From: a virus
Taxonomy: Duplodnaviria > Heunggongvirae > Uroviricota > Caudoviricetes
Length of the DNA: 43,439 nt
Direction: 5' to 3' (one strand)
IMG/VR virus record: IMGVR_UViG_2711768068_000024
The notes under the pieces are model-generated. The model was not told the DNA's origin and searched no databases. It was given only the letters and a program-made list of their open reading frames with translations. This document shows, piece by piece, positions 7,066 through 39,970 of the stretch; position 1 is the first letter of the stretch; each line of letters opens with the position of its first letter. The translations under genes were made by a program, and so were the position numbers.

Positions 7066-7119
7066 TTTGTTGTCCTGTAAATTAGGTTCTGGCGCGGCAT
7101 TCCGCGCCGTTCAGATACA

Positions 7120-10227: not shown

Positions 10228-10237
10228 GGTATAAATT

Positions 10238-10787: not shown

Positions 10788-10790
10788 TTA

Positions 10791-16058: not shown

Positions 16059-16172
16059 AGCTATAGATTGCCATGAATGATGTATCTAAGAACAAGGTGA
16101 GCTTAGTCTGGTCCATGACACAATTAAGAATTACTATATAAAAATTGTTAACTACTTGGTTGAGAAACAAAC

Positions 16173-17159: not shown

Positions 17160-17173
17160 ATATAACGAAGGAA

Positions 17174-18065: not shown

Positions 18066-18297
18066 TAATCATGTCCACTTTGTCTGCACAGACCGCCCAG
18101 GCGGCCTCCGTTTCATCCAGCAATGCGTTCAGATCACCGTTAGTGCGCGGCGCTGCCTGCTCCAGCCGACACGGCGTCACTCGCGGACAACCACTGACGG
18201 TAAGCTGCACCTCCGGTGAGTGCCGGACGTTCCCGCAGCCGGATAATGTCAGCAGGCAAAGGAGTATCAGCCCAGCGGCGTAAATCCTCGTTCTCAC
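18007..18297 (-). CDS. Outer-membrane lipoprotein spanin (LysC/Rz1-like)
   Basis: 96 aa with signal peptide and lipobox LTLSGC; starts inside lysB in another frame and extends past it. Confidence 0.65.
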   Translation of the reverse strand: MRTRIYAAGLILLCLLTLSGCGNVRHSPEVQLTVSGCPRVTPCRLEQAAPRTNGDLNALLDETEAAWAVCADKVDMIIACQERNSEQTTVPAPRPQ

Positions 18298-18568
18298 GTT
18301 TCAGTTCCTCGATCCGGCGTTGTCGTTGTCTCAGCAGTGCGCTGGTCTGTTCTGCTTCGGCATAGAGCCGCGCCTGCTCCCGGTTATTGGTTTCAGCCAG
18401 AATGGACAGACCGATCAGTTGGCTGTTTTTCTTCGTCAGTTCCTGCGCTTTACTTTTCAGCGCCGTGCGCTGCGTTTCGATGGTGTGGCTGGCGCTGTTA
18501 AGCCGCCACGACTGCCAGCCCAGCGCAACGAGTGCCAGCGCCACCACTACTGCCAGTGCACGCGTCAT
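18140..18568 (-). CDS. Inner-membrane spanin (LysB/Rz-like)
   Basis: 142 aa, N-terminal TM segment then coiled-coil; contains the overlapping lipoprotein gene. Confidence 0.7.
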   Translation of the reverse strand: MTRALAVVVALALVALGWQSWRLNSASHTIETQRTALKSKAQELTKKNSQLIGLSILAETNNREQARLYAEAEQTSALLRQRQRRIEELKRENEDLRRWADTPLPADIIRLRERPALTGGAAYRQWLSASDAVSAGAGSAAH

Positions 18569-19080
18569 AGTCCAGCTCCTTTAAGGCACCAGGCCATCTC
18601 CCGCGCACGGCGGTTATCCAGCCCCTGATTAAAAACACCTTTCACATAAACCCAGCGCGGCAACTGTCGGCATGCATCCGCCCAGCGCCGCTGATTGAGT
18701 AATTTCACCAGCGTGGAACTGCAGGCATTGCCCGTACCCACGTTGAAGGCAAACGACACCGCAGCGTCATACACCTTCTGCGGCGGCTGTTGCTTCACAC
18801 ACCTTTCCAGCGCCCGCTCCACACGCAGCACGTTGGAGATCAGCCCTTCTGCTGCCTGTCGCTCCGTAATGGTTTTGCCGGGAATGACGCCCGATGTATT
18901 ACCAATGCCGTCGGTCCAGACACCCGCGCTGCACTGATACGGCTGCAGACGACAGCCTTCGTAATCGGCAATCAGTTTCAGCCCCTCCACGGAGGTGTGA
19001 AGCTGCTGAAAACCCGGCAGCGTGGCAGCAATAGCCAGCACGGTCCCGACAAGGCAGCGTTTAACGATTGATGGATTCAT
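18565..19080 (-). CDS. Endolysin (lysozyme, GH24-type), probable signal-anchor-release form
   Basis: 171 aa; catalytic pattern EGCRLQPYQCSAGVWTDGIGNT (E-x8-D-x5-T); hydrophobic N-terminal segment. Confidence 0.85.
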   Translation of the reverse strand: MNPSIVKRCLVGTVLAIAATLPGFQQLHTSVEGLKLIADYEGCRLQPYQCSAGVWTDGIGNTSGVIPGKTITERQAAEGLISNVLRVERALERCVKQQPPQKVYDAAVSFAFNVGTGNACSSTLVKLLNQRRWADACRQLPRWVYVKGVFNQGLDNRRAREMAWCLKGAGL

Positions 19081-19276
19081 AGTCCTCCCGCGAGATCTGC
19101 CCGTCGCGCAGAAGCTGGTAGGCTTTGTGTTTGTAGTACCAGTTGATAGCCAGCATCAGCACACCAATCATCAGGCCGCCCAGTGTTGAGGCATCCTTGA
19201 TGGACAAATCGCCCAGCCAGGCCAGCACGACGGCGATGCAATACGTGATAAAGGCGCTGATTCGCTCAAGCGTCAT
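19061..19276 (-). CDS. Holin
   Basis: 71 aa, two TM segments, charged C-terminus, directly upstream of the endolysin. Confidence 0.7.
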   Translation of the reverse strand: MTLERISAFITYCIAVVLAWLGDLSIKDASTLGGLMIGVLMLAINWYYKHKAYQLLRDGQISREDYESINR

Positions 19277-19279
19277 AAT

Positions 19280-19483
19280 TCAGTCCCATAGCTGGACGGT
19301 CTGCACGGTGGTGGTGGTCGGAATGTCCGGCAGCTCCACCTGCAGCCCGTGAGGTAAAAAGGGGCTGTATTCGGCAAGCCCCGGATTTGCCTTCAGTACC
19401 TGCTCCGTGACACCCTGCGTGCGCCCGTAATGACGCCAGCAAAGCGCGTCCACCGTGTCATACTGATGCGCACGCACTTTCAT
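19280..19483 (-). CDS. Tail protein gpX
   Basis: 67 aa, same size and position as P2 X. Confidence 0.7.
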   Translation of the reverse strand: MKVRAHQYDTVDALCWRHYGRTQGVTEQVLKANPGLAEYSPFLPHGLQVELPDIPTTTTVQTVQLWD

Positions 19484-20010
19484 CAGATAAGCTCCACTGT
19501 GCAGTGCGGCGCATCCTGCACCCGGCTGATGGCCCAGCGGGCGTCACGCCATAAATCACCGCTTGCTTCCGCCAGTTCCTCGCCTCGCTTCGCACCGGAT
19601 GCCGTGGCGTCATAGTCCTGGTAACGTTCGTTGAGCATGGCGCGTGCCCAGCAGTAAACCGCGTTGAAATAGTGCTGAATGCGCTCACTTTTGCCGTCCA
19701 GTTGTTCCGCCGGGACTTCTGCCAGCGAGGCATACCCCAGCATCTGCTGGCGTCTGCGAAACTCATACAGCTCTGCGTTGACCTCCGAAATTGCCGACAG
19801 CGCAACCTGCTTTAAACGCGGCTGCGTCACCGTGCCGTCAGTGCGCATGACACTGCGAAACTCCGACAGGTCCACATCAGGCCAGAACGGCGTATTTCTG
19901 ATGATTTCCGCCTGTTCCGGTGCCTGTTCTGGCGCAACAAACTTCATGCTGCTTTCTCCTGAAATAGAGGGCGGTGGACGGGGTTTTGATGTGGCAGTGC
20001 CTTTCGCCAC
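19483..20010 (-). CDS. Head completion protein gpL
   Basis: 175 aa, P2 synteny. Confidence 0.8.
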   Translation of the reverse strand: MAKGTATSKPRPPPSISGESSMKFVAPEQAPEQAEIIRNTPFWPDVDLSEFRSVMRTDGTVTQPRLKQVALSAISEVNAELYEFRRRQQMLGYASLAEVPAEQLDGKSERIQHYFNAVYCWARAMLNERYQDYDATASGAKRGEELAEASGDLWRDARWAISRVQDAPHCTVELI

Positions 20011-20042
20011 CCCGTGCCGCCCGTGCGCGGGGGCACGTTCTG

Positions 20043-20693
20043 TCAGCGGCTGTCATTGCGCAGTCTGCGCTCCAGCTGCTGTTTGTCTTTTTTCACGCCA
20101 CAGCGGGGATCGAGCTGTAACGCATGGTTGAGATGATTAAGGGCGGAAGCCGGGTTGCTTTCACTCAGGACAGCGCCAATCGCTTTATGCAGACGCGCCC
20201 GTGACTGGTCCGGCATATCCATACCGTCTGTCAGCTCCAGGGTCTGCAGCAACAGATCGGCATCAAAGCCGGTGGCGGCAAGCATTGCGCTCTGGGCTGC
20301 ATCTGCCATTTCCTCTGCCAGCACGGTCTGCACGTTGCGGTTACCTAACGGCATCACCCAGCCATGACGCAGGGCGTGACGCCCGATCTCCAGCGCCCCG
20401 GCATAATCTCCGGCATCAATGCGCCACAGCATCACGTACATCAGCACGTCATCCTGCTGTGCGCCTCCGGCAGTCAGGACACCCTCTGCCCAGGCGGCGT
20501 ACTTCGGCAGCAGTTCCACCTTAATCTCCGCTTTTTTGACCGTGGACTGAACGCCCTTGAGACGGCGGCGGTCTTCCGCCAGTTGCAGCAGCATCAGGTC
20601 ATAGCCCGACGCGTGGCGAACGCTGCCGCCCTCACGGGCGGCCTGTTCAGCCTGAACGCGCAGGCGATGCTGCCGTGCGGGACTCAGGCTCAT
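20043..20693 (-). CDS. Terminase small (endonuclease) subunit gpM
   Basis: 216 aa, P2 synteny. Confidence 0.8.
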   Translation of the reverse strand: MSLSPARQHRLRVQAEQAAREGGSVRHASGYDLMLLQLAEDRRRLKGVQSTVKKAEIKVELLPKYAAWAEGVLTAGGAQQDDVLMYVMLWRIDAGDYAGALEIGRHALRHGWVMPLGNRNVQTVLAEEMADAAQSAMLAATGFDADLLLQTLELTDGMDMPDQSRARLHKAIGAVLSESNPASALNHLNHALQLDPRCGVKKDKQQLERRLRNDSR

Positions 20694-20696
20694 GGG

Positions 20697-21755
20697 TTAC
20701 GCTCCGGCTTCTGCTGCAGCGGCGCTGAAATCGCCAATCTGGATGTTTTCCACCAGTGCGGCGCAGCGGTAGTCCTCAACCACATAGGCTTCGTTAACGG
20801 ATTCAAAGTTTTCAATCCGGTCACGTTTCGGGTTGTCGATAACTGAACGGCGGCGGGTGTCTTCCTGCCAGTAGATGGACAGGTTATCCAGACGGGTGAT
20901 CAGCAGCGCATTCGGCGGGAAGAACGGCGCACGCACGGCCTGCAGGCCACCCATGCGTTTCTGGCTGATGATCATATCGGCAGCCAGTTTTTCACTGTTT
21001 TCCTGCTCTTTGTTGACCAGCGGGAAATACTTGTCAGACAGCAGTTCACGACCGCAAATCACCACCAGATCGTCATCGTCCTGGTAGACCACGTCGATAA
21101 GCTCATTGACGGCATCCATCACCACTGCGTCCAGGTTGGCATATTCGCCACCTTTACCGACTTTCACCGCACCCGGTGTGGTTTCACCGCCCGTGGTGGT
21201 GCTGCCCATGACGTGATCCGGTGCATCCTCACGGATTTTCTGCAGCCAGCCTTTGTTCACATCCTGCAGTAGCGGGTTTTCACTACGGTTGGAGGTTTTC
21301 GCACGCTTCACGCCGTTAAAGCCGATCATGATGCGGTCCAGTGCCTGACGTTTCACGATGGCGTCACGGATACGCACCTGGAAATCCTGAAACTTCGCCC
21401 ACAGGTCCAGCTTCGCGTAGGTCAGCACCGTGTCAAAGTTGGTCTGCTCGCATTTATATTCCACATCGACCATCAGCGTCGGATCGACAGGTTCACGCTC
21501 TTTCGCGGTGGTGTCAGTGGTTCCGGCAATGGTGCTGCCAACACCCAGCCCCAGCAGCTGACCGGACTGCTCAGTCACTGGCGTGACGTTAATCAGCGTC
21601 AGGAAAGCGGCGGACTGCTGGATCTGGTCTTCCAGCGTCTGCTGTACAGACGGCTCCACGGTGAACTTGCTGGACAGTTCTTCAACTGCCACACCGTTCA
21701 GACGCGCCAGCTGCTGCAGGTAAGCGTTAAAAGCAAAGCGGGTATTCTTCTTCAT
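20697..21755 (-). CDS. Major capsid protein gpN
   Basis: 352 aa, P2 N-like size and position. Confidence 0.9.
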   Translation of the reverse strand: MKKNTRFAFNAYLQQLARLNGVAVEELSSKFTVEPSVQQTLEDQIQQSAAFLTLINVTPVTEQSGQLLGLGVGSTIAGTTDTTAKEREPVDPTLMVDVEYKCEQTNFDTVLTYAKLDLWAKFQDFQVRIRDAIVKRQALDRIMIGFNGVKRAKTSNRSENPLLQDVNKGWLQKIREDAPDHVMGSTTTGGETTPGAVKVGKGGEYANLDAVVMDAVNELIDVVYQDDDDLVVICGRELLSDKYFPLVNKEQENSEKLAADMIISQKRMGGLQAVRAPFFPPNALLITRLDNLSIYWQEDTRRRSVIDNPKRDRIENFESVNEAYVVEDYRCAALVENIQIGDFSAAAAEAGA

Positions 21756-21771
21756 CAGGTTTTGTGCTCCA

Positions 21772-22605
21772 TCAGCAATTGGTCAGAGTGTCAGCGGGGG
21801 CGTTACCGCCTGTTGCACGCTGGCGGTAGTCCTGGCGGCTGTCTTCATGGCTCAGCTTGTCCACCAGTTCGTTAAAGGCGGTCTGCTGTGCCTGCAGGGC
21901 AGTCTCCAGCTCAGACAGGCGTTCTTCCTGCTCAGACAGGGATTTTTCGGTGCGCGCACTCAGGTTCTGCTGCTCAGTGGCGACCAGTTCCACGGCCTTA
22001 TGCACATCAGAGAACCGGGCGTCATCGGACTGCTCTTTTTTGGTGAACAGCGCCGTGACACGGGCAAACAGGGACGGTTTGTCATCCTGGATTTCTTCCA
22101 GTTCGATCACCGTTTCCTCTGCAGCGGTAAAAAGATTGGCGGGATTCTGCTTGCGGTTTGCCAGCGGGTTATGGGCTGCACTGGCGCTGAATGTCAGCAT
22201 TTCAGTGCCCAGACTGGCAGGGTCATCAGTGGCAGCCAGGCCGACCAGGTAGGCTTTGCCCGTATCAGCAAACTTCGGGCTGACTTCCATAGAGGTGAAT
22301 AATTTCTGGCCTTTTTTCACCAGTTCCACCAGGGACTCCGTTGGCTCAACGTCGGCATACAGCGCCATCTTGCCTGCCAGCGGACCTTCCGTGATTTCTT
22401 CAGCAAACAGCGCAGTCACCTTGCCGTAGCGGTTAAAGGTGCTGTCCGGCAGATAAGACTTGATGTGCTCAAGGTTAATCAGCGCGGTATACACCGCCGG
22501 GTTGTAGCTGGCTGCCATCTGTTCCAGCCATTCACGCTGGATTTCGCGTCCGTCGGTGGTGGCACCTTCCACCCCGATGCGAAAACGCTTTGCTTTCACT
22601 GTCAT
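21772..22605 (-). CDS. Capsid scaffolding protein gpO
   Basis: 277 aa, acidic coiled-coil-rich, P2 synteny. Confidence 0.85.
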   Translation of the reverse strand: MTVKAKRFRIGVEGATTDGREIQREWLEQMAASYNPAVYTALINLEHIKSYLPDSTFNRYGKVTALFAEEITEGPLAGKMALYADVEPTESLVELVKKGQKLFTSMEVSPKFADTGKAYLVGLAATDDPASLGTEMLTFSASAAHNPLANRKQNPANLFTAAEETVIELEEIQDDKPSLFARVTALFTKKEQSDDARFSDVHKAVELVATEQQNLSARTEKSLSEQEERLSELETALQAQQTAFNELVDKLSHEDSRQDYRQRATGGNAPADTLTNC

Positions 22606-22747
22606 GAGCCGTGCTCCGTTAGAAAAAACTTACTGGAGCCTTATGGTTGCGGTGATGGGGGCAGTGAAACAATGCGCGGTATTTGTACCAACAACCACAC
22701 AAACCGCAGGCGGGGAAAGCCTTCATTCAAGGCTGTAGGTTTGTGCC

Positions 22748-24514
22748 ATGAACACCACACTGACACCCGCAGATCTCGATCCCCGTCGGCAGGCCATGCT
22801 GCTGTACTTTCAGGGATACCGCGTCGCCCGCATTGCTGAAATGCTGGGCGAGAAAGTTGCAACCGTTCACAGCTGGAAAAAACGCGACAAGTGGGGTGAC
22901 TATGGGCCGCTGGATCAGATGCAGCTCACCACCGCCGCACGCTACTGCCAGCTCATTATGAAGGAGCACAAAGAAGGGAAAGATTTCAAAGAAATTGACC
23001 TGCTGGCACGCCAGTCTGAGCGCCACGCGCGGATCGGCAAGTTTAACAATGGCGGCAACGAAGCCGACTTAAACCCTAACGTTGCCAACCGCAACAAAGG
23101 CCCACGTCGTCAGCCGGAAAAGAATGTTTTCACCGATGAACAGATTGAGAAACTGGAAGAAATCTTCCATTCCTCTATGTTCAACTACCAGCGCCACTGG
23201 TGGGAAGCCGGAAAAACCAACCGCATCCGCAACCTGCTGAAGTCACGCCAGATCGGCGCGACCTTTTACTTTGCCCGTGAAGCCCTGATTGACGCCCTGC
23301 TGACCGGGCGTAACCAGATTTTCCTTTCTGCCAGCAAGGCTCAGGCCCACGTCTTTAAACAGTACATCATCGACTTTGCCAAAGAAGTGGAGGTGGAGCT
23401 GAAAGGCGATCCGATGGTGCTTCCTAACGGGGCCACGCTTTACTTCCTCGGCACCAATGCCCGCACGGCCCAGAGTTACCACGGCAACCTGTATCTGGAT
23501 GAATATTTCTGGATACCGAAATTCCAGGAGCTGCGCAAAGTGGCTTCCGGTATGGCTATTCACAAAAAATGGCGACAAACCTATTTTTCCACGCCATCCA
23601 GTCTGACACACAGTGCTTATCCGTTCTGGTCCGGTGCGCTGTTCAACCGTGGGCGCAACAAAGCCGATAAGGTGGACATCGACCTGTCCCACAGCAATCT
23701 GGCCCCCGGCCTGCTGTGCGCAGACGGGCAATACCGCCAGATAGTCACCGTGGAAGATGCGGTGCGCGGCGGCTGTAACCTGTTCGACCTCGACCAGCTA
23801 CGCATGGAGTACAGCCCAGACGAATACCAGAACCTGCTGATGTGCGAGTTTGTGGACGATCTCGCGTCCGTGTTTCCGCTCAGCGAGCTGCAGGCGTGCA
23901 TGGTGGACAGTTGGGAAGTCTGGACCGACTTTCATGCACTGGCGCTGCGCCCGTTTGGCTGGCGCGAAGTGTGGATCGGTTATGACCCGGCAAAAGGTAC
24001 GCAAAACGGCGACAGCGCTGGATGCGTGGTGGTGGCACCGCCAGCCGTGCCGGGTGGTAAGTTCCGCATTCTTGAGCGTCACCAGTGGCGCGGGATGGAC
24101 TTCCGCGCCCAGGCTGACGCCATCAAAAAACTTACCGAACAGTACAACGTGACTTATATCGGTATCGACTCAACCGGCGTTGGTCACGGGGTTTACGAGA
24201 ACGTGAAAGCGTTCTTTCCTGCCGTCCGGGAGTTTGTCTACAACCCCAACGTTAAAAACGCCCTGGTACTCAAGGCCTACGACATTATCAGCCACCGCCG
24301 TCTGGAGTTTGACGCCGGGCACACCGACATTGCGCAGTCATTCATGGCAATCCGTCGCGCAACCACCGCCAGTGGCAACCGCCCAACCTATGAAGCCAGC
24401 CGCAGCGAAGAAGCCAGCCACGCCGATCTGGCCTGGGCAACAATGCACGCACTGTTTAACGAACCACTGCAGGGCGAGTCCGCCAATACCAGTAATATTG
24501 TGGAGATTTTTTGA
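22748..24514 (+). CDS. Terminase ATPase (large) subunit gpP
   Basis: 588 aa, divergent from the O-N-M-L operon as in P2. Confidence 0.9.
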   Translation: MNTTLTPADLDPRRQAMLLYFQGYRVARIAEMLGEKVATVHSWKKRDKWGDYGPLDQMQLTTAARYCQLIMKEHKEGKDFKEIDLLARQSERHARIGKFNNGGNEADLNPNVANRNKGPRRQPEKNVFTDEQIEKLEEIFHSSMFNYQRHWWEAGKTNRIRNLLKSRQIGATFYFAREALIDALLTGRNQIFLSASKAQAHVFKQYIIDFAKEVEVELKGDPMVLPNGATLYFLGTNARTAQSYHGNLYLDEYFWIPKFQELRKVASGMAIHKKWRQTYFSTPSSLTHSAYPFWSGALFNRGRNKADKVDIDLSHSNLAPGLLCADGQYRQIVTVEDAVRGGCNLFDLDQLRMEYSPDEYQNLLMCEFVDDLASVFPLSELQACMVDSWEVWTDFHALALRPFGWREVWIGYDPAKGTQNGDSAGCVVVAPPAVPGGKFRILERHQWRGMDFRAQADAIKKLTEQYNVTYIGIDSTGVGHGVYENVKAFFPAVREFVYNPNVKNALVLKAYDIISHRRLEFDAGHTDIAQSFMAIRRATTASGNRPTYEASRSEEASHADLAWATMHALFNEPLQGESANTSNIVEIF

Positions 24515-25551
24515 TGGGAAAGAGTAAGAAGAACCGCGCTGCGTCGACGAACCAGATCCAGCATAAAAGTCAAACTACAGCCGAAGCATTCAGCTTCGGT
24601 GATCCCGTTCCTGTTCTGGACCGCCGCGAACTACTGGACTATGTGGAATGCGTACAGACAGATCGCTGGTATGAGCCGCCAGTAAGCTTTGACGGACTGG
24701 CGCGCACCTTCCGCGCCGCCGTGCATCACAGTTCACCAATTGCGGTGAAATGCAACATTCTGACCAGTACCTACATCCCCCACCCGCTGCTCAGCCAGCA
24801 GGCTTTTTCACGTTTTGTGCAGGACTATCTGGTATTTGGTAACGCCTACCTGGAGAAACGCACGAACCGCTTCGGTGAAGTTATCGCCCTTGAGCCTGCT
24901 CTGGCAAAATACACCCGACGCGGGTTAGACCTGGATACCTACTGGTTTGTGCAATACGGCATGACTACGCAGCCGTATCAGTTCACGAAAGGCAGCATCT
25001 TTCATCTGATGGAACCGGATATCAACCAGGAGATCTACGGCCTGCCCGGTTATCTTTCTGCCATTCCGTCAGCCCTGCTCAACGAGTCCGCCACGTTGTT
25101 CCGCCGTAAGTATTACATTAACGGCAGCCATGCAGGCTTCATCATGTACATGACCGATGCCGCGCAGAATCAGGAGGATGTGAACAACCTCCGCAACGCG
25201 ATGAAAAGCGCCAAAGGTCCAGGCAACTTCCGCAACCTGTTTATGTACTCACCTAACGGCAAAAAAGACGGGCTTCAGATCATCCCATTGTCAGAAGTCG
25301 CGGCGAAGGATGAATTTCTTAACATCAAGAACGTGAGTCGGGATGACATGATGGCAGCGCACCGCGTGCCGCCGCAAATGATGGGGATTATGCCGAATAA
25401 TGTTGGGGGGTTTGGGGATGTGGAAAAGGCAAGCCGTGTATTCGTCCGAAATGAGCTAATGCCACTACAAAAGCGATTACAGGAGATGAATGATTGGCTT
25501 GGCAAGGAGGCGATACAGTTTAATACCTACTCGCTAGATATAGTCCCATAA
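24511..25551 (+). CDS. Portal protein gpQ
   Basis: 346 aa, 4-nt overlap with P, P2 Q-like. Confidence 0.9.
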   Translation: MMGKSKKNRAASTNQIQHKSQTTAEAFSFGDPVPVLDRRELLDYVECVQTDRWYEPPVSFDGLARTFRAAVHHSSPIAVKCNILTSTYIPHPLLSQQAFSRFVQDYLVFGNAYLEKRTNRFGEVIALEPALAKYTRRGLDLDTYWFVQYGMTTQPYQFTKGSIFHLMEPDINQEIYGLPGYLSAIPSALLNESATLFRRKYYINGSHAGFIMYMTDAAQNQEDVNNLRNAMKSAKGPGNFRNLFMYSPNGKKDGLQIIPLSEVAAKDEFLNIKNVSRDDMMAAHRVPPQMMGIMPNNVGGFGDVEKASRVFVRNELMPLQKRLQEMNDWLGKEAIQFNTYSLDIVP

Positions 25552-25585: not shown

Positions 25586-26326
25586 TTACTCAATAGGTTC
25601 AAACTCATCCTGAGGAATCAGCGTCGATTGACAGGCTTGGCTTAGTACTCCTGATAATTTACATAATAACCGATAGTTATGAGGAGCATCATCGCTAATC
25701 TTTTCGACCGTTAAAGTGATTGATTTTGGATCATCCAATAACATCTTCTTGATATCATTACTTAAATACCTAGGGCAGTAACCAACGATTTCAGCTGGTT
25801 TATCTGCACGAACGACAACAGCATCCCCATCGTATTCATTTTGAAGATCCAAGCAAAGACGCAAAATTTGCCCCGGTTTCAATTCAGATACACGAGCATT
25901 AGCTAAGCTATTTAAGTAACCAAGTCCATGTAAGAAGAAAAAATGCTCAAAGTTACCATCAGAATCAACATCAATTTTTTTGAAAATCTGCAGCTGATCA
26001 GTGCTTCGTAAGCCTCCCGAGCGAGCAAGAATATCGATAGGATTTACCTTATCTTCTTCAAATCCAAGCCATTTAATGAAACTCGGATACTCTGGACGTC
26101 TCGGTGATAAAAGGCGATTTTTAAAAAGAGGAAACAATTCTTCCGAAACATAAGTTTCACGAACATCACTCATGCCGCTAAACTTTGTAAATTTAGTAGA
26201 TTTAAGAGCACCTTTGGTATACCTGAAAACATACCCCGATTTGCGCTCTTGCAAGTTACCAACAACATGCCAGTCTCTGGTATCTGGTGCCTGCCATGCG
26301 ACGTAAACGGAGTTTGTATTAGTCAT
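25586..26326 (-). CDS. HipA-N-terminal-like domain fused to HIRAN-like domain
   Basis: 246 aa; N-terminus VYVAWQ..VVGNL..YVFRY..ELFPLFKNRLL resembles the HipA N-terminal subdomain; C-terminus ILRLCLDLQNEYDGDAVVVRADKPAEIVGYCPRYL fits the HIRAN pattern; 4-nt overlap with the upstream kinase gene. Confidence 0.55.
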   Translation of the reverse strand: MTNTNSVYVAWQAPDTRDWHVVGNLQERKSGYVFRYTKGALKSTKFTKFSGMSDVRETYVSEELFPLFKNRLLSPRRPEYPSFIKWLGFEEDKVNPIDILARSGGLRSTDQLQIFKKIDVDSDGNFEHFFFLHGLGYLNSLANARVSELKPGQILRLCLDLQNEYDGDAVVVRADKPAEIVGYCPRYLSNDIKKMLLDDPKSITLTVEKISDDAPHNYRLLCKLSGVLSQACQSTLIPQDEFEPIE

Positions 26327-27237
26327 TCTAGTAACCTTCTGCGATTTTCCATTACCATTAACGTTGCAAATCTACGTGCACTGTCGGATATACACGATGA
26401 AGGCACTTGGTTAAACACATCTGTAATGGAATCTTCTGTTAAAACGCTCAACTTACCTAACCAATGGTCGCGAGCGGCAACTCTCCCTTCAACTGCATGT
26501 TGAAATGCTTCAACGGTCAGCAAGGGCTTTTTATCAGTTTTTGCTTTGAATAGCTCAGAGCGAGCTTTTCTTACAAAACATGGGATTTGTCGATTTTTAT
26601 CTTTAGTATTAAGCCGTTCGTTACGCTCATCATCTAACATCTCCCTTCCTAAACTAGCGGCATGATCGTATGTTGGACACAAAAACTGCTCACCAGTTTC
26701 ATTGTTAAGCATGATCGCCCAATTTTCATGATGGCGATCTTGATTACTCACAAGTGCATCGAGCATCAAATATCCACAAAATACATCTGCTGCATTTAGC
26801 CCGGTTAGATCATATACACTCGGAGGAGGCTTGATAGATTCCCTATCCAAACAACCCAATACCCTTGTGACAGTGTGTTCTCTGACCCTTACCGGCTTTT
26901 CCCCGGCTTGTAAAGGCCCAGGATAATCGAATGTCGAACTGTGAAGCACTTCATTTCCCATTACCATCCGGAAACCAGATGGAATGATATTCTGAGTCAC
27001 CACACCGAATCGACCATTGTATCGCGCCAAATCATAGCTAGCATGTGGAATGTTAAGCAAATGACATAACTCAGCAGCACACTTTTCAGACCAATGCTCG
27101 CCAGTACCTGGCCTAGAGTACTTAAACAACTGCAAATTTACAGTGTCATCGGAGAAATAGAACCAAAACTTCTCTTTGGTTCCTAACTGTTCAAGATCGT
27201 TAGCTACGGGGCTAAGCTCTACCAATTGGTATGGCAT
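26323..27237 (-). CDS. HipA-like Ser/Thr kinase core (HipT-like, no N-terminal domain)
   Basis: 304 aa; GTKEKFW (P-loop-like), LVSNQDRHHENWAIM (catalytic loop, compare HipA GATDGHAKNFS), PTYDHAASL (metal-binding YD). Confidence 0.7.
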   Translation of the reverse strand: MPYQLVELSPVANDLEQLGTKEKFWFYFSDDTVNLQLFKYSRPGTGEHWSEKCAAELCHLLNIPHASYDLARYNGRFGVVTQNIIPSGFRMVMGNEVLHSSTFDYPGPLQAGEKPVRVREHTVTRVLGCLDRESIKPPPSVYDLTGLNAADVFCGYLMLDALVSNQDRHHENWAIMLNNETGEQFLCPTYDHAASLGREMLDDERNERLNTKDKNRQIPCFVRKARSELFKAKTDKKPLLTVEAFQHAVEGRVAARDHWLGKLSVLTEDSITDVFNQVPSSCISDSARRFATLMVMENRRRLLE

Positions 27238-27387
27238 CTGACATCCCTGTTTAGCGGATTATGAATAAGTTAGGTTCCATTTTATCCAAACATTGCCAAA
27301 TACTCTAAGATTTATTAGATGATAGAGCGATACTGTATGCATGTCCAGCAATCAAATCAATATATAACTCTTATATGACTTAGCGCG

Positions 27388-27410
27388 CGCTCGTATCCCC
27401 GCCACGCCTG
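27388..27410. other. Probable cos site (P2/186-type cohesive end)
   Basis: Bottom strand reads GGCGTGGCGGGGATACGAG, sharing its first 13 nt with the 186-type cos sequence as I recall it; lies in the AT-rich gap between cargo genes, as cos sits next to Q in P2. Confidence 0.45.
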
Positions 27411-27845
27411 CCCGCTTTGTGTAGTGGTTTTCATGCAGTTGCATAACATAAGCAAAAGCTCGTCAGAACTGGCAGGCTTCGACTTAAACGATCCACTAGC
27501 GATCATTCATTTTCATGCAGCATAGGTATGCACCAGAGTTACTTTGAGGTGCAATGGATGATACCTACAGATTTGCTACCCAAGGTCATGCTGAAAATCT
27601 ATCGCATCTGTATGATGCCGCGGACATAGCAAAATCTCCCCATGCAGTGACAAACTACTTGAGTAAATACTGTTGTGTTACCACAAGAAGAGATTTCAAA
27701 AGGAAAACAACGCTATGTTATCTAGTACATATAGCTATAAATGTCTTAATTTTAGCCAATACATTGAATTAAATGAAAAAATACTTTAGTTTGTATACTA
27801 TTTTTTAGCGTTCAAGATTATGCAATTTTTTGGAGAGAACTATAA

Positions 27846-28814
27846 GTGGGATCTTTCAGTTTACTTGCATCACGACCAATACCAACTGTGCTAGAAACAA
27901 GACAGTTTAACTCAGTTAACGGCAGTGACGCCGAATCTTATGCAATGAGTCAATTCATTCTTGCTTGTAGAGGAGAGGGGCACTGGGGTTCCAGGGAAGA
28001 CGACAATTCAAAAATAGATTTAATATTATCCTTCGAACATCCATGGGCATCAAAAGAAAGAATGCTTATATTATCGCAAGTTAAATCAGGGGCAACTTAT
28101 GGTCATTTATTAGAGAAAGGTTTTGTATTAAATTCGGCCGCAAAAAAAGCAGCCAAAAGGACAACTCACCATATATGTGTCGTTTGGGTTGACAGAACTA
28201 ATCGTAAAGCATTTTGGGCCTATATACATCCAAACACTACCCTTAAAAACCAAACTTATGGAGAATATCACTTAATCACTCCGGCCACACGGTTTGACCT
28301 GGCTCGCTGTATGTCCATGGTACGTGCAGGTGAAACTGGAGCAAAAGGAATCCATGTAAGAAGAAGAAACTCACTACTTAATAATCGGCGAGCGTTTGTT
28401 AAAAAACGTTATTCTGAACAGAAAGAAATCACATCTCCGGTGCTTGGGAAAATCGAGCTTACACGGCTGGGTTGGAGACATATGTTCAGAAAGAGTCGCA
28501 GAGAAGAAAACAAAGCAACGAGTTTGGACATTATTCCCTACTTGAGAAATTTACTAGTTCGGTTTCCTTCAACTCATGCTATTACTTCTTCTGATGTCCG
28601 TGATTACGGCTGTTTTACTTACCAAAGAAGAGAGCACTTATTGAAATTTAATAATCTAGAGGTTACTTATGCCAAAGGAGAGGGAAAAAATAAAGTATGT
28701 GCTTATATTCGTGTTATAGAAGAAATAAGGTATCCAAAAGATTGGACTAACGCGGTAATGCTATCACAGCAGGTTGAAAGACGAGTGGTTTTGAAGTCAG
28801 CATATTATAAATAA
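27846..28814 (+). CDS. Hypothetical cargo protein at the tin/old-equivalent position (between cos and gene A)
   Basis: 322-aa AT-rich ORF with GTG start preceded by GGAGAG; basic C-terminal half; weak nuclease-like motif (KIDLILSF ... LSQVK), not confidently assigned. Confidence 0.6.
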   Translation: MGSFSLLASRPIPTVLETRQFNSVNGSDAESYAMSQFILACRGEGHWGSREDDNSKIDLILSFEHPWASKERMLILSQVKSGATYGHLLEKGFVLNSAAKKAAKRTTHHICVVWVDRTNRKAFWAYIHPNTTLKNQTYGEYHLITPATRFDLARCMSMVRAGETGAKGIHVRRRNSLLNNRRAFVKKRYSEQKEITSPVLGKIELTRLGWRHMFRKSRREENKATSLDIIPYLRNLLVRFPSTHAITSSDVRDYGCFTYQRREHLLKFNNLEVTYAKGEGKNKVCAYIRVIEEIRYPKDWTNAVMLSQQVERRVVLKSAYYK

Positions 28815-29398
28815 CGAGGCCGTTGGGAAGCCAGCACTTGCGCCCATGCTCTGCCAGATTCCGGTTTCGAATCGGTTCTCTGGCAATAATGCGGATAGCG
28901 TACTGGGCATCAGCCTTAGCTTTTGCACTCAACCCAACGACCAAGTGATGAAGCATACTAGTAAAGAAACTTTAATTCTAGATGTTTTGAAGCAATTCTC
29001 ACATCAAGTATTAATTTTTCTAAAGCAATGACCTAATGGTATGTCAGGTTTCAACGAAAATTGGCAACCAATCTAGATAACTGTACCTTTTCAAAAAACT
29101 GGTGCGTATCGTTAGTCTCCTTTCGCCGTTGTTCCAGTCTGGTCGCTTCAATAAAAAGCAAGGCCGCCGTACAGCGAAACTATATAATCATAGCTTAAGC
29201 CAAATCACTCATCTAAGGTGTGGCTCCATTAGTAGTTTGAGCGCTAACAGCCCCTCTGGCGATAAAACTACTCAATACCTGGCACGAAGCAAAATCTGGA
29301 AGTTACTATTTTTTTCCCATGACTAACGCCTCGCATGGCTCGTTGATCAACCTTGCTAGCGTCAGAATCAAGTCCTAACGCCAGCAACGTTTCTAAGC

Positions 29399-29587
29399 CT
29401 AACCGGGGAGATCCATTGAACGGTTGTACTCATGAGTACGGATTTTCGCCATTAACTCATCGGTCAGCTCCGAAACCCACTGGATAGCAAGCCGCTTCTC
29501 TTCATCATCGCACTCACTAGCCGCTACAAGCTTAAGAAAAAAATCAATGCGCTGGAGCTTCAAAGACTCCAAAAAATAGTCCTGCAT
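29399..29587 (-). CDS. Hypothetical small protein downstream of A
   Basis: 62-aa ORF in the orf91-like position; weak support. Confidence 0.3.
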   Translation of the reverse strand: MQDYFLESLKLQRIDFFLKLVAASECDDEEKRLAIQWVSELTDELMAKIRTHEYNRSMDLPG

Positions 29588-29741: not shown

Positions 29742-32156
29742 TTAATACAGGTTCCGCCACTTATCATCTTCCTGCAAACGCTGGTTCCGATAGAAGATAC
29801 GCAGGCCTGCTCCTGACGGAATACTGCCGCCGCGAAGGAGTAAATCGACCTCTTTCTCGCTGCCATCAAATCCTCTGGATTTCAGTTCATAGACGAGCTG
29901 CTGTCGTTGATGGTCTGTAATTCGCTGTTTGTAGTCTCTACGCCGTTTCGGTTTCACCAGACGTAACCTTGCAGCCAATTCCCGGCGCTCCTTTTTGTTC
30001 ATACTGTGCAGGTAATCGTGCAACACCTTGTCATCCATGCGGGTAATGTCCGTTCTGGGGTCCCCATCAGCTGATTTATCTTTCTCCTGTTGGTTCAAAT
30101 TTTCAGCAAGGGGACAGTTATTGCCACGAGTCCAAGGGGCGCAAGCGCCCTGGTCGGCTGCCGCCTCCTGAACGTCAACGGCCTTACGAACCATTTTCCA
30201 CTTCACCGCATGAGTGCAGATCTTGCCCTCTGCAATGGGTGACCAGATGCCATAAATACGAATACCGTGATCGCCATAGGCGGTCGGCTCTTCGTTGATT
30301 TCATAAGCAGTTCTGATGAGGTGATATTTGCGGGGAACCAGTACGCCGCCCTGCTTCATGATGTAGGTGGCAAAACAACCAGCATCAGCAGCAGCCAGGA
30401 TTGCATCAAGGCGCGGGTTATCCAGTACCGGCGCACCTGCTTTTTTGTCCCCCTGTTGCCTTGCCGCCTGACCAGCCAGCAATCGCAGTTCACGGTAAGC
30501 CTGACGCCCCGGAATGCCAAAGAAGCGGAATTGCTGAACACGATGCAGAGACGCCCAGGCATTAACGTATTCAGCGTTATCACGCAGGGATTTACCCGTT
30601 TCCTTGCTGATCTCGCCAGCCAGACCACGCCCGTCAATGTTCTTACTGATGTATTTCGCGATGTAGCTTGTTGGCGTACCTTTGCGCGGGTTTATCAGCT
30701 CAGACTTAAAGCGTGGCCCCGTGTTATTGCCCAGCTCCTCGCGGTCTTCACGGATGGCAAACTTACGCAACAATGCAGTAATGGCGCGGCGGTCTTTTTT
30801 GCGCATGAAACACAACAGGTGCCAGTGAACTGTGCCGTCATGATGCGGTTCAGCCACCCGCACGCCATACCAGCGCAACCCGGCTTTGTGCATAGCCTTA
30901 CGAAATGCAGCAAACATGCCGACCAGATAATCGCTGCTTTGTCTTACCGTCGCGTTTGTCCAGGTCGGGTTTGGTCTGCCGTTATTGAGCGTGGAATGGA
31001 AACGCGACGGACAGGTGATAGTGTAGAAAACGGCACAGTCACTGCGCATTTCTGCGATAAGCTCCAGACCTTTAACACAGGCCATCATCTCATTGCGGCG
31101 ATGCGCCGGGTTGCTGCTGCTGGCGTTTACCACATCCTCCATGTCCAGCGTGTCGCCGTCTTCGTTCACCAGTTCATGAGAACGGAAAAACTCCAGCGAC
31201 TTACGGCGCTGCTCACGTTTATGCATCACGGCTTCATAGCTGACATAGGGAGATGCTTTTTTGCTGACCAGGCAAACAGCACGCAACTGCTCTTCCCGCC
31301 ATTCGCAACGCATCTTCCATAATTTCCGGTACCACCAATCGGCGCACAACATACGCGCCAGCGAACCCGGAATGAGTTCATAGGGCACGGGTTTACGGCG
31401 GTTTCTTTTCCGACGAAGTTGCTCAAACGCAGGCGGGATAACATCCAGTCGCAGGGTTTCTGCTGCCACCTTTTCCCATGTCTTGCGGATTTCTTCTGGC
31501 TTAACATCATCGGTGGCGTACAAATCACCACAAGCGGCATCAAGACACATGCTCATATGCGCAGCGACAAGAGTAGACAGGCGTTTCACCTGATCCTGAC
31601 TCATTTCAGGCAGAATCAGCAGGTCGTCCAGCCCTACATGGCTTGCCATAAAACGAAAAGATGCAGATAGCTGGCTGTCGCGTACATGCTCCAGTCGCTC
31701 CAAACATGGCTTAATCGTCTCACGCAAATAGCGGGAATAAGCCTTTGGCCTGCCCAAGCTGCTGAAGTATTCAATACGTTGCATCAGCGGCTTGCTGATA
31801 TGGGAAGGCTGGGCATTGACGTCCGCCAGAATGACCATATCTGGATTAAAACGCTGCTGCTCATGCGCCAGCTTTGCCCGACTAATGAGCTTATCCTGCT
31901 CCATTTCGCGCTGGACAGGATCACGGGATTCATTAAAGAAATAACGCTCCCAGACCTGATCACTCAGTGCCTCGCGGCGCAGGTGTTCCTGCTCGTTATC
32001 GGCAGCGTACAGAGCGATCAGGTTTGAAAGCGCAGAAACCGGCGCAACTTCCGCCGGGTCCAGATAAGGGTTAATGGCCTTTTTCGGGCTGTTCCATGAG
32101 AACGCTGCGGCAGCCTCGTTAAAGCCGCAGCAGTTGTTCATATCGGCATGGCTCAT
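29742..32156 (-). CDS. Replication initiation protein gpA (rolling-circle nickase)
   Basis: 804 aa, P2/186 A-like size and position. Confidence 0.9.
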
Positions 32157-33010
32157 GCACGTACTCCGTACACGGCAGAACTATCCAGGCCACGCGAATA
32201 ATCAAATCCCACCCAGCAGCGCGGCCCGGAAACAGCAATGATTTCTGTTGCTGATTTACCCTCGCCAGCTGCCACACCGATGCTGCGTTTTACCTTGATA
32301 TAGTGGTGAGTAAAATTGCGATACAGCGAACGGATCAGGGATGTGTCACTGTTAGAAACAATGACCGGATGTCCTTCTGATGACCGATGTTCAAGAACGG
32401 ATGCCAGGTGATACTGGTCATCTTCAGTGAAACCATCAGTGTGATAGCCGGAAAACGTACCGTCATACGGCGGATCGCAATACACCACATCCCCTGCCTT
32501 CAACATCGCCAGCGTTTCATCAAAGCTGGCGCAGATAAACGTTGCTCGCTGGGCTTTTTCTGCAAATGCGCGAATTTCTTTTTCAGGGAAATACGGATTT
32601 TTATAATTACCGTAGGGAATGTTGAAATGCCCGCTCTTGTTATAGCGACATAAACCACGGTAACCGTGACGATTGAGATACAGGAAATATACCGCTTTCA
32701 TGAAATCAGTAATTTCAGTTGAGTAATTAAACTCCTGCCTTATGTTGTAATAAGCCACCTCCCTGTTTGCGATCTCAAATAAAACTCTGGCGCGAGATAT
32801 AAACGATTCACAATCAGCAGCAACCTTTTTATAGAGGTTGATTAAATCAGGATTAATATCCGCAACCAGATAGCTGGGGTAATCCGTCTCCATCATCACT
32901 GCACAGGAACCCGCGAAAGGTTCAACCAGTCGCGGGCCAGCAGGAAGGTATTTTTTCAGTTCGGACATAATGGCAGTTTTATTACCCGCCCATTTCAGGA
33001 TGGTGCTCAT
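32153..33010 (-). CDS. DNA adenine methyltransferase (Dam family)
   Basis: N-terminus [11 protein letters not shown], catalytic DPPY motif ([11 protein letters not shown]); start trimmed from the track ORF (33070) to the Dam-like Met that overlaps the upstream stop. Confidence 0.85.
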
Positions 33011-33234
33011 ACAGCACCTCCGTTGTAATGTTTGCCTTTCAGTTCTGCGATTTCCTGGCAGGTAATGCAAAGCTGCACACCCGGAATGGCGCGGCGTCGT
33101 ACTGGCGGAATTGGCGCTTCACACTCAATGCAAAGCACGCGGGACACGCCCGGTGTTTTGGCACGGGCAGCACGGATATGGCGCTGGCGTTCTTCTTCAA
33201 CGCGCTGCTGTACGAGATCCATTGCATCAGCCAT
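33007..33234 (-). CDS. TraR/DksA-type C4 zinc-finger protein
   Basis: 75 aa with CIECEAPIP...LCITCQ. Confidence 0.7.
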   Translation of the reverse strand: MADAMDLVQQRVEEERQRHIRAARAKTPGVSRVLCIECEAPIPPVRRRAIPGVQLCITCQEIAELKGKHYNGGAV

Positions 33235-35835: not shown

Positions 35836-36852
35836 ATGACCATCAGAAAACAGCCGAACGGAAAATGGTTGTGTGAGTGCTATCCCAATGGACGCAATGG
35901 TAAGCGCGTGCGTAAGCAATTTGCTACGAAAGGCGAAGCCATTGCTTTTGAAAGCTTCACAATGGAAGAAGTGAATAAAAAACCGTGGTTGGGTGAAAAG
36001 GATGATCGGCGACGCCTATCAGAATTAATTGAGCTTTGGTATTCCCTGTATGGTCAGACACTCGCAGACCCCAAGCGCCTCATGGCGAAACTTAGAATTA
36101 TCTGTAATGGTCTAGGCGACCCCATCGCCTCAGAACTGACAGCCGGTGACTTTACGAAATACCGCGAAGCACGGTTAAAAGGTGACGTTCGTAACGAAGA
36201 CGGCACACTAATGTCGCCAGTAAAACCACGCACGGTGAATCTTGAGCAACGTAACCTATCATCGGTTTTTGGCACATTGAAAAAACTAGGCCACTGGTCA
36301 GCACCAAATCCTCTCGCCGGGCTGCCAACATTTAAAATCGCTGAGGGGGAACTGGCGTTCCTGACCTCGGAAGAAATTAAACGTCTGCTAGATGCCTGCG
36401 CTGATTCTCAAAACCCCAGTCTGCTTTTGATTGCAAAAATATGCCTGGCCACCGGCGCACGCTGGAGTGAAGCCGAAAACCTGCAGGGCCATCAGTTATC
36501 TAAATACCGCATCACTTATACCAAGACGAAGGGTAAGAAAAACCGCACCGTGCCGATATCTCAAGATCTGTATGACGAACTCCCCAAGAACAGAGGGAAG
36601 CTATTCACCCCGTGCAGAAAAGCCTTTGAACGAGCAGTAAAGCGAGCTGGCATCGAGCTGCCAGAGGGCCAATGCACTCACGTGCTACGTCATACATTCG
36701 CCAGCCATTTTATGATGAATGGCGGAAACATACTGGTGCTGCGCGATATTCTGGGCCATGCCGATATAAAAATGACGATGATCTATTCTCATTTTTCACC
36801 AGAACACTTAGAAGATGCAGTAACTAAGAATCCTTTAAATTATATTGAGTGA
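35836..36852 (+). CDS. int: Tyrosine integrase (P2/186 family)
   Basis: 338 aa; C-terminal catalytic region (..HVLRHTFASHFMMNGG..LRDILGHADIKMTMIYSH) with the R...H-x-x-R...Y pattern; adjacent to attR. Confidence 0.9.
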   Translation: MTIRKQPNGKWLCECYPNGRNGKRVRKQFATKGEAIAFESFTMEEVNKKPWLGEKDDRRRLSELIELWYSLYGQTLADPKRLMAKLRIICNGLGDPIASELTAGDFTKYREARLKGDVRNEDGTLMSPVKPRTVNLEQRNLSSVFGTLKKLGHWSAPNPLAGLPTFKIAEGELAFLTSEEIKRLLDACADSQNPSLLLIAKICLATGARWSEAENLQGHQLSKYRITYTKTKGKKNRTVPISQDLYDELPKNRGKLFTPCRKAFERAVKRAGIELPEGQCTHVLRHTFASHFMMNGGNILVLRDILGHADIKMTMIYSHFSPEHLEDAVTKNPLNYIE

Positions 36853-37919
36853 AAATCATGTTAAGTGATACTTGTTATACAGTGATTTATATTGCAGCAA
36901 TCGTTTTATTAGTATTTATTACAATAGTAAAAAAATGGTACATGCTTGATAAAAGAAATTTATTTCGTCAGAAATTATTTTGGATTTCAGTTTTAACACC
37001 TTTATTTTCCTTTATCTATTTTGGTTTTTTCACATGGTGGGGAAAAGAACCAGTACTCTCCGCACATGGCTATTCAAGATTTTACGAAATAAGCAAATTC
37101 CCTCTACTATTGCTAGCTAGTGCAGTTCCTTTGGCTTCGATCGTCAACAATATACATCGCACTATACAAACCGAAGCTCAGATCAACACCGCTGAAACGA
37201 AAAATGCAGTCGATAGATATTTAGCACATGAGAAAAACTTTATTGAGAAAACAAAGGAAATATTCGCCTACAATCTTCAAAGCGCGAGAGACTCAGATGG
37301 AAACCTCATTAAATTCAATGGCGAACCAAATATCACTTTGTTTACAGCAGATGAAATTAAAATTTCCAACCCATATCTTTTATATACAAAAATATACAAC
37401 AAATCAAATATAGAGACCACATCTAACTTCACCGCAAACCCTGATTTTTTAGTGCAATTAAAGGAGTACTTAAACACAATTAATAATACTCTGTCGGTTC
37501 AACACTCTATAGATGAATATAATCCATTAAGTTACATGATTCGACTTAACACTTTGTCATATAATACAGCCTCGTTATTAGACCTGATATGTACATCCCC
37601 CATATCTCATGTATACTGTTTGATAAAATATGATGGGTATCAATTAAAAACATTTACACTTGAAGAACAAGTATTCGCCGATATTTTAGAAATATCATAT
37701 CTTCTATCAAGAAAACTAATTCGTTTGATATATAATGAAGATATACCACATTACGACAACATTTATAATTACTTATATGTTGGTAAGTTGAGGTTTAAAT
37801 TCAGAAAACACGCCAATTCTTTACAAGCATTTTCTTCGCAGGAATGGGCTGATTACGTTTCTGAAGCACTAACTCTAGTTCCTAACGAAGTTGGCGGCAC
37901 TTTGGCGGCAGCGCATTAA
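36849..37919 (+). CDS. Membrane-anchored cargo protein of unknown function between int and attR
   Basis: 356-aa very AT-rich ORF (GTG at 36849 or ATG at 36858); three predicted N-terminal TM helices then an Asn/Tyr/Ile-rich soluble domain. Confidence 0.65.
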   Translation: MKIMLSDTCYTVIYIAAIVLLVFITIVKKWYMLDKRNLFRQKLFWISVLTPLFSFIYFGFFTWWGKEPVLSAHGYSRFYEISKFPLLLLASAVPLASIVNNIHRTIQTEAQINTAETKNAVDRYLAHEKNFIEKTKEIFAYNLQSARDSDGNLIKFNGEPNITLFTADEIKISNPYLLYTKIYNKSNIETTSNFTANPDFLVQLKEYLNTINNTLSVQHSIDEYNPLSYMIRLNTLSYNTASLLDLICTSPISHVYCLIKYDGYQLKTFTLEEQVFADILEISYLLSRKLIRLIYNEDIPHYDNIYNYLYVGKLRFKFRKHANSLQAFSSQEWADYVSEALTLVPNEVGGTLAAAH

Positions 37920-38004
37920 AAATTAGTAAAATGGACAAACACTACATAACAATAACGCACTGTTTTTAAATGCAAACTACTGTTTTTGCTATAGTAAAAA
38001 TGGT

Positions 38005-38049
38005 ATGTAGGAATTTCGGACGCGGGTTCAACTCCCGCCAGCTCCACCA
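38005..38049. repeat. attR: second copy of the 45-bp ssrA 3'-end repeat
   Basis: Identical to 1016..1060; followed by a hairpin/T-tract and then the P4-type integrase gene, i.e. the original ssrA 3' flank. Confidence 0.85.
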
Positions 38050-38085
38050 CTTTTTAGTTGTTTGAAGTTCAATGAAGTCTACTAA

Positions 38086-38117
38086 GCCCACACAGCACAA
38101 GCTCTGCGGGCTTTTTT
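38086..38117 (+). terminator. Probable displaced native ssrA terminator
   Basis: Imperfect hairpin GCCCACACAGC..GCTCTGCGGGC followed by TTTTTT. Confidence 0.4.
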
Positions 38118-38172
38118 ACGTCTATTGTCGTCCAGTGAGAATTGCTGAGAACTACGAGTTATGGCACCCTGA

Positions 38173-39444: not shown

Positions 39445-39482
39445 GTATCAGAATAGCTAATATAATCCTGAAGGTAAAGAAA

Positions 39483-39899: not shown

Positions 39900-39970
39900 A
39901 CAACATCATTGTGATGATAAATATAAAATAGGCATGGCGAAAAAAAATCACCACGCCTAAAATATAATAA

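Follow-up and report, generated by a model that had tools for sequence, protein, structure and literature searches.

What does a P2-like prophage carry between cos and replication gene A, in the slot where phage P2 keeps its exclusion genes old and tin, and is that cargo a single gene? In the 43,439-nucleotide (nt) Caudoviricetes stretch analysed here (IMG/VR record IMGVR_UViG_2711768068_000024; "the window" denotes this stretch at its full length), the slot holds an AT-rich gene for a protein of 322 amino acids (aa), predicted to be a nuclease, and next to it a structured small RNA gene that is convergent with the nuclease gene and abuts its stop codon. RNA and nuclease gene together appear to be a dedicated two-component cargo module, as judged from sequence comparison across loci. 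An earlier interpretation made from the letters and open reading frames (ORFs) of the window, the sequence-only reading, had located the gene and placed it in the slot, both of which stand; it overlooked the RNA neighbour at 28818-28941 on the minus strand, which was found by comparative DNA and covariance analysis. The reading that we favour, tentatively, is an RNA-controlled nuclease module for defence or exclusion in which the RNA may hold the nuclease latent.

Comparison of the window with homologous loci revealed DNA similarity from the start of the coding sequence (CDS) to ~125 nt past its stop codon, where it ceased. According to an nhmmer profile and a covariance model (R1, built from 15 sequences and scanned over 325 kb of loci), 19 of 20 family loci, drawn from several phyla, have the RNA next to the homologous gene, and R1 yields exactly one match per family locus, always at the stop codon and on the strand opposite to the gene. 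Across loci the predicted end of the RNA lies 0-20 nt from the CDS or up to 10 nt inside it. The matches include four sequences outside the training set and a copy on a Pantoea plasmid; taxonomically, those outside training come from a cyanobacterium, Bacteroidota, alpha-, beta- and gammaproteobacteria, and the plasmid. RNAalifold recovered the closing stem P1 and two inner stems, and hairpins P4, P5 and P6 appeared in most sequences when the variable regions were folded separately. In the R1 alignment 91.2% of cells pair, compared with 75.5% after shuffling and 30-54% in slid controls, and 19 of 25 pairs have changed on both sides. Thirteen metagenomic copies outside the training set reach 95.9% pairing (83.5% in shuffles) with 13 covarying pairs, although these copies were chosen by a pattern in P2 and the invariance of P2 among them is therefore biased. 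The copy in the window folds into the comparative structure with a minimum free energy of -49.8 kcal/mol (z -3.1). Rfam 15 returned no match at E ≤ 1 in this region of the window and none over the element in eight other loci, and nothing is annotated at the position of the RNA in the E. coli records.

The association also held when searches started from the RNA. All five viral contigs found by a pattern scan carry the identical gene, and a scan of metagenomes gave 60 loci, of which the covariance model accepted 13, every one convergent with a family gene and directly next to it. The 47 remaining loci are chance matches in unrelated coding sequences and do not show the RNA without the gene; their number is presumably close to that expected by chance, on our own rough estimate. 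Model-supported copies in these scans thus stood beside the gene in 18 of 18 cases. Beside distant superfamily members and the most divergent family member (Pedobacter, L024), R1 found nothing. Protein-coding neighbours are not conserved across the family loci. Since the unpaired blocks of the RNA are nearly invariant across phyla while the proteins are only ~50% identical, a conserved partner seems to read the RNA, and because the nuclease is the only constant neighbour it is the likely reader.

Pairing also indicates the strand. Read on the minus strand, the alignment contains 42 G·U as opposed to 9 A·C cells, a bias that marks the minus strand as the RNA strand. At other loci a site of the form TTGnnn-N17-nAnnnT ends 6-8 nt before P1; over 26 loci, 14 locus-position scores of at least 8/12 fall at d = 6-8, the sole positional peak, and by this spacing transcription would begin with the first base of P1. 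Duplex energies between the RNA and the ribosome-binding/5' region of the nuclease gene were no better than those of shuffled controls, and complementarity to known phages was limited to chance matches of 23 nt. Other identities of the element were rejected. Its ends (GTTGGG...CCCAAC) are in the reverse of the attC core order (RYYYAAC...GTTRRRY), and in a Vibrio integron described below it lies within the cassette, apart from the attC repeats. A tRNA-like fragment or a short ORF was ruled out by the compensatory nature of the substitutions.

The N-terminal half of the protein is, by family profiles and structure modelling, a DUF4365/DREN-type PD-(D/E)xK nuclease domain with its predicted active-site signature intact. 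An AlphaFold2 model of the 322-aa protein (pLDDT 90, pTM 0.85) has a restriction-endonuclease-like fold in this half, whose best structural matches are the DREN-APAZ (DUF4365-APAZ) chains of SPARDA, a kind of short prokaryotic Argonaute system. The DUF4365 profile (PF14280) matches 31 of 38 close members of the family (best 4.9e-7) and 45 of 54 distant ones (best 2e-15). The close family has D58, Q78 and K80 without exception; in the distant superfamily alignment D58 and Q78 occur in 53 of 53 sequences and K80 in 52 of 53. The DUF4365-APAZ protein TmuRE is a non-specific DNase that was inactivated by mutating its active-site QxK (PMC10810196), and its Q62 and K64 are the equivalents of Q78 and K80. 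NCBIfam and PHROGs gave no usable match to the window protein, and a profile search against PDB sequences found nothing.

The C-terminal half is basic (pI 10.3; 34 K+R against 15 D+E) and carries three signatures, W210-R-H212..R215..R218, E292..P297..W300 and S318.Y320.K322. Its similarity to LPD3 (PF18798) rests on matches in 27 of 38 close and 24 of 54 distant members (best 1.4e-7), and precomputed PF18798 matches exist for several homologues. A profile of this domain searched against 1.84 billion representative proteins gave 139 matches, nearly all of them 300-340 aa long and with the domain placed C-terminally in the same way, and distant relatives at 20-25% identity keep the signature (WRH..R..R / E..P..W / S.Y.K), with DUF4365 in front in 45 of 54. 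As far as these profiles tell, the C-terminal domain occurs almost only behind a DUF4365 domain. Among the relatives, P0228 has an N-terminal EAD8 (effector-associated domain 8), P0233 an extension of ~110 residues before DUF4365 with only a weak IF2_N-like match, and P0245 a CHAT protease domain ahead of a weak, partial match to the C-terminal domain; EAD8 and CHAT protease domains are hallmarks of effector modules in conflict systems. An identity with APAZ was ruled out, as matches to the PADLOC model Aga_REase-PNTD1-PNTD2 span only profile positions ~9-120 of 429, and the search with the C-terminal profile retrieved no APAZ proteins. The sequence-only reading had noted a basic C-terminal half and a weak nuclease-like motif (KIDL...SQVK). 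Both were well observed, and the motif proves to be the invariant D58 / Q78-x-K80 signature; its verdict that no family could be assigned falls with the family-level profile matches to DUF4365 and LPD3.

The gene is present in full length in 179 homologues at 46-82% identity, mostly of ~320 aa among the matches listed, from a search of 5.8 billion proteins; the homologues listed come from gamma-, beta- and alphaproteobacteria, Bacteroidota and one cyanobacterium. The window protein had no match in the deposited phage genomes searched. The identical E. coli gene is annotated by the NCBI pipeline from Met34, as a protein of 289 aa (RefSeq, L001/L002 8100-8969). Residues 1-33 are kept across homologues, with N22, N25, G26, D28 and E30 nearly invariant in the alignment, and a homologue with 82% identity has ATG where the window gene has GTG. 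These two observations favour the 322-aa form, so that the NCBI call appears to remove 33 conserved residues and the long form is supported as the better gene model. Several database homologues of 289-294 aa probably share the truncation at Met34.

The genomic company of the family is diverse. Neighbours in family loci comprise Gabija genes, an islet with an integrase only, and transposases; a metagenomic island (L004) has a CBASS operon and a Fic gene near the family gene, and a Nodosilinea locus has Dnd genes and a gene for a ScoMcrA-like HNH protein. The Pantoea plasmid carries both family gene and RNA. In Vibrio parahaemolyticus (L025, 1-10991) an integron array on the chromosome contains 17 attC-like repeats, each of ~120 nt (TAACAAA...GCGTTA); one of its cassettes (6001-7140), between the repeats at 5838-5971 and 7153-7257, consists of a family gene (52% identical) and the RNA. 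In L088 a tRNA gene (51-121) precedes a family gene that is 100% identical to a member of the alignment by ~130 nt, as is typical of genomic-island insertion at tRNA loci. Distant relatives (L031 1-3942, L028 390-3927; 20-25% identity, same two domains, no R1 RNA) are found 10 nt downstream of the HsdR gene of a type I restriction system, or follow at a distance of 47 nt a gene for an 854-aa AAA_13/SMC-like ATPase beside an Mrr_cat gene, which suggests protein-partnered versions of the same effector. From such contexts we infer a role of the module in defence, which the sequence-only reading had deemed plausible by position.

A single-gene precedent exists for such a role. Divona, an integron-cassette gene of V. 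cholerae with an N-terminal DUF4365 domain, reported to lie near integrases in E. coli as well, was experimentally shown to be anti-phage; its C-terminal part was described as crr6 (PF08847), and no RNA was reported for it (bioRxiv 10.1101/2024.07.02.601686). The family described here shares with Divona the N-terminal DUF4365 in a single-gene system and, through its 52%-identical member, residence in a Vibrio integron cassette. None of the 38 close and 54 superfamily members matched crr6 at E ≤ 1, and no V. cholerae protein was among the matches listed in the family searches, including the superfamily-profile search. Compared by description and N-terminal domain, Divona is the closest functional precedent. 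LPD3, for its part, has been described as a domain of polyvalent proteins of phages and plasmids, giant multi-domain proteins that are injected, with a function that is not known (PMC5512222); here, unlike in that setting, it would be fused to a nuclease, and it matches about half of the members.

How might the two components work together? From the patterns above we infer protein-RNA binding, an inhibitory RNA, DNA cleavage and anti-phage defence. The ~125-nt multi-helix RNA would start from a promoter of its own on the opposite strand and extend to the 3' end of the nuclease gene or just into it. It would bind the basic C-terminal domain and thereby keep the nuclease latent, and the protein-RNA complex might act as the sensor. 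Should a competing phage infect the cell, loss, displacement or alteration of the RNA would free the nuclease to degrade DNA non-specifically, excluding the incoming phage, perhaps at the cost of the cell. A complex in which the RNA exerts control is favoured because the unpaired blocks are so well kept and the nuclease is the only constant neighbour of the RNA.

Several observations weigh against this reading. Taken alone, the window protein stays below threshold for both families, with DUF4365 at E 0.12 and 12.9 bits (cut-off 24.3) and LPD3 at E 0.042 and 14.5 bits (cut-off 27), and PADLOC models gave no match to it. A structural search with the C-terminal domain yielded no confident analogue, so that an RNA-binding role for it is suggested by charge and co-occurrence only; its signature is also kept in relatives without the RNA, and it may therefore bind DNA instead. 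The promoter candidates in the window lie off the spacing conserved elsewhere, leaving the exact site uncertain. Finally, in a 2.97-Mb contig (L006) an IS21-family element (IstA/IstB; 8968-9063 / 9022-11545) directly follows the nuclease gene, and the RNA has lost its 5' half by the insertion or by a deletion, while the nuclease ORF is intact and its protein identical to that of L007, which has the full RNA. An intact nuclease beside half an RNA speaks against an antitoxin that cannot be dispensed with and leaves room for a cofactor model.

In that model, which we consider possible but less probable than a latent nuclease, the nuclease depends on the RNA as a positive cofactor, be it scaffold, activator or target-recognition subunit, so that the ribonucleoprotein is active and the protein alone inert. 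The module would then be an Argonaute-independent, RNA-dependent DREN-type immune nuclease whose fixed-sequence RNA serves as sensor or scaffold and not as guide or simple antitoxin. Strict co-occurrence in both directions agrees with this, and the intact ORF in L006 would be expected if the protein alone is harmless. Relatives that lack the RNA have an AAA_13 ATPase or HsdR instead, as if the RNA replaced a partner subunit. The DREN domain is, moreover, the one used by the RNA-guided SPARDA systems, to which the window protein is linked by DUF4365/DREN, the QxK motif, the best structural matches, an immune context and, here, a putative tie of its activity to RNA. It departs from SPARDA in having an LPD3-like C-terminal domain in place of APAZ and no Argonaute gene nearby: around it the window has the HipA-like/HIRAN pair, a 62-aa ORF and gene A, and the Pfam families listed for the called genes of homologous loci include neither PIWI nor Argonaute. 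Whereas SPARDA uses short guides, the RNA here appears to be a dedicated, fixed and structured transcript. Against a cofactor role, its unpaired segments are conserved and not variable, which speaks against a programmable guide; meaningful complementarity to known phages or to the 5' region of the gene itself was absent, and a PD-(D/E)xK nuclease dependent on a fixed structured RNA has no known precedent.

Toxin-antitoxin logic offers further parallels. Type III toxin-antitoxin and abortive infection systems (ToxIN, AbiF-type) likewise combine a nuclease with a cis-encoded structured RNA on mobile elements and in phage defence, and the latent-nuclease logic proposed here resembles theirs; however, their RNA consists of tandem repeats and is encoded upstream on the same strand and co-transcribed, whereas the RNA here is single-copy, downstream and on the opposite strand, and the protein has a predicted PD-(D/E)xK fold unlike that of the type III endoribonuclease toxin. 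A type I-like arrangement, which we regard as improbable, would make the RNA a cis-antisense to the 3' end or 3' untranslated region (UTR) of the nuclease mRNA that lowers its stability, mainly to stabilise the mobile element, with or without abortive infection. Prophages do carry type I pairs with antisense RNAs that overlap the toxin gene at its 3' end (TxpA/RatA, BsrG/SR4), and RalR/RalA joins a DNase toxin to an RNA antitoxin. In both cases a prophage gene with potential toxicity faces a convergent small RNA at its 3' end, here with the predicted end of the RNA at or inside the CDS. Yet a cis-antisense RNA needs no conserved fold, while here compensatory changes keep a multi-helix structure whose unpaired blocks hardly vary across phyla; the RNA overlaps the CDS by only 0-10 nt, loss of RNA is tolerated in L006, and a large, 322-aa two-domain enzyme is unlike typical type I toxins. 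Type I and type III systems share logic or geometry in part but appear to fail in their defining features here.

Less probable still is a stand-alone restriction-type endonuclease, e.g. a modification-dependent, type IV-like enzyme whose C-terminal domain reads DNA, with the RNA as a linked expression element or unrelated. A single nuclease gene without a methyltransferase partner would fit, and a PD-(D/E)xK domain followed by a basic C-terminal domain resembles the layout of some type IV enzymes. The ScoMcrA-like HNH and Dnd genes of Nodosilinea point the same way, as does the C-terminal signature in relatives devoid of the RNA. What this explanation leaves aside is the RNA itself, which accompanies the gene in every context and exceeds the protein in conservation. 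Finally, it is very unlikely that the downstream element is no RNA gene at all but serves on the plus strand as 3' UTR or terminator, encodes a short protein or marks a recombination site (e.g. attC), for although 84% of cells still pair on the plus strand, short ORFs exist on both strands and one family member resides in an integron, the 42 to 9 bias and the promoter-like site at fixed distance favour the minus strand, the substitutions are compensatory rather than codon-like, and the ends run in reverse attC core order with the element of L025 apart from the flanking attC repeats.

The setting of the module in the prophage is that of a cargo slot (Table 1). The cos junction of the P2 reference aligns to 27382-27437, within a block (27379-27535) that is backbone common to P2-like phages and 1260 E. 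coli genomes. In these genomes with related prophages, the cos block and the 62-aa ORF near gene A are common while the interval between them varies; the cargo itself was found in 4 of 5426 complete genomes. Only 27857-28941, the CDS plus RNA, is common to homologous loci elsewhere, and blastn alignments to L003 and L004 end at the CDS start and the 5' end of the RNA. The order in the window is portal - [HIRAN, HipA-like] - cos - [nuclease gene] - small ORF - A, and that of P2 is A - orf91 - tin - old - cos - Q, where transcription of old and tin comes from the cos side. The nuclease gene lies on the old/tin side of cos in the same orientation (cos to A), in the gpA-gpQ interval, which has been published as a hotspot for defence genes in P2-like phages (PMC9122126). 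It has slot and transcription direction in common with old and tin, and exclusion by Old is likewise nuclease-based; by contrast, there is no relation in sequence or domains, and neither PADLOC nor Pfam gave an OLD, TOPRIM or AAA match. GC content is 0.38-0.40 over 27501-29000 and 0.51-0.62 in the capsid and packaging gene blocks (17501-25500). The sequence-only reading fares well here: cos alignment, gene order, orientation and hypervariability uphold its tin/old-equivalent slot, the low GC its AT-rich gene, and the full-length homologues its ORF, and the GTG start preceded by GGAGAG is there as it said.

Table 1. Features of the window, numbered from its first letter.
Feature	Position	Strand	Basis or remark
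Structured small RNA gene, ~125 nt; closing stem P1, conserved stems P2/P3, variable hairpins P4/P5/P6	28818..28941	-	nhmmer, covariance model R1
Predicted nuclease gene, 322 aa, GTG start, two domains	27846..28814	+	ORF list, 179 homologues, AlphaFold2 model
Shine-Dalgarno-like GGAGAG, 8 nt 5' of GTG	27832..27837	+	read from sequence
Predicted DUF4365/DREN-type PD-(D/E)xK nuclease domain, aa 1 to ~160	27846..28325	+	
Candidate catalytic residues D58, Q78, K80	28017-28019, 28077-28079, 28083-28085	+	E44 also invariant
Basic alpha+beta domain, LPD3-like, aa ~165-322	28338..28811	+	
Putative RNA promoter region	28955..29002	-	consensus scan: GTGAGA-16-TAGAAT (29002-28975) or TAGTAT (28960-28955)
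cos-like 19-mer, one edge of cargo slot	~27390..27408	-	alignment of P2 NC_001895 cos junction
Hypervariable cargo slot, cos block to conserved 62-aa ORF	27536..29404	.	1260 E. coli genomes, flanks only matching
72-aa ORF within cargo slot, 5' of nuclease gene	27554-27772	+	no family detected
62-aa ORF beside gene A	29399-29587	-	backbone in ~1260 E. coli genomes, annotated hypothetical
Gene A	29742..32156	-	
HIRAN protein, 246 aa, between portal gene and cos	25586..26326	-	
HipA-like kinase, 304 aa, between portal gene and cos	26323..27237	-	
Dam-like DNA adenine methylase gene, directly downstream of gene A	32153-33070	-	annotated in L001

The HipA-like/HIRAN pair on the other side of cos matches the PADLOC candidate PDC-M03A/B (E 2e-122 and 3e-93) and PHROGs 8728 and 8026; its insertion spot is distinct from the tin/old side of the hotspot. 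No functional link between this pair and the nuclease gene was apparent: the two were not seen together outside this prophage, except for a lone ORF in L004 (7250-7564, 104 aa) with a Couple_hipA (HipA N-terminal) domain just 5' of the family gene, which may be coincidental. In E. coli SW071614 (L002, NZ_CM129856.1; 4336-5706) the prophage is defective, with portal and VgrG/Pvc8-like genes reduced to truncated pseudogenes and the morphogenesis block between them lost, and it retains an intact PDC-M03, the nuclease gene (99.6% identical) and the RNA. The Dam-like methylase gene could matter if the nuclease discriminates by methylation. Other AT-rich stretches (GC 0.29-0.45) lie within or beside the prophage at 10501-11000, 16001-17500 and 36500-43439 and may be further cargo slots (e.g. 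the hotspot equivalent to Z/fun) or else host or island DNA at its flanks.

That prophage hotspots yield new immune systems is well established, and the cargo described here appears to reuse the DREN nuclease of SPARDA in a much smaller package. Its conserved structured RNA, uncatalogued in Rfam 15, tracks the gene through prophages, integron cassettes, plasmids and islands in distant phyla. Genome pipelines drop 33 codons of the gene and miss the RNA, and defence finders that consider proteins only would never detect the RNA component. If the RNA is an obligate part of an active ribonucleoprotein, the module would represent an RNA-protein defence class not described before, with a new RNA family spread over several bacterial phyla. 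If, more generally, the RNA controls or completes the nuclease, a compact protein-plus-RNA design and a new RNA family would be added to bacterial immunity, and this could show how, without a protein partner, cells keep safe a non-specific nuclease that might otherwise kill them.

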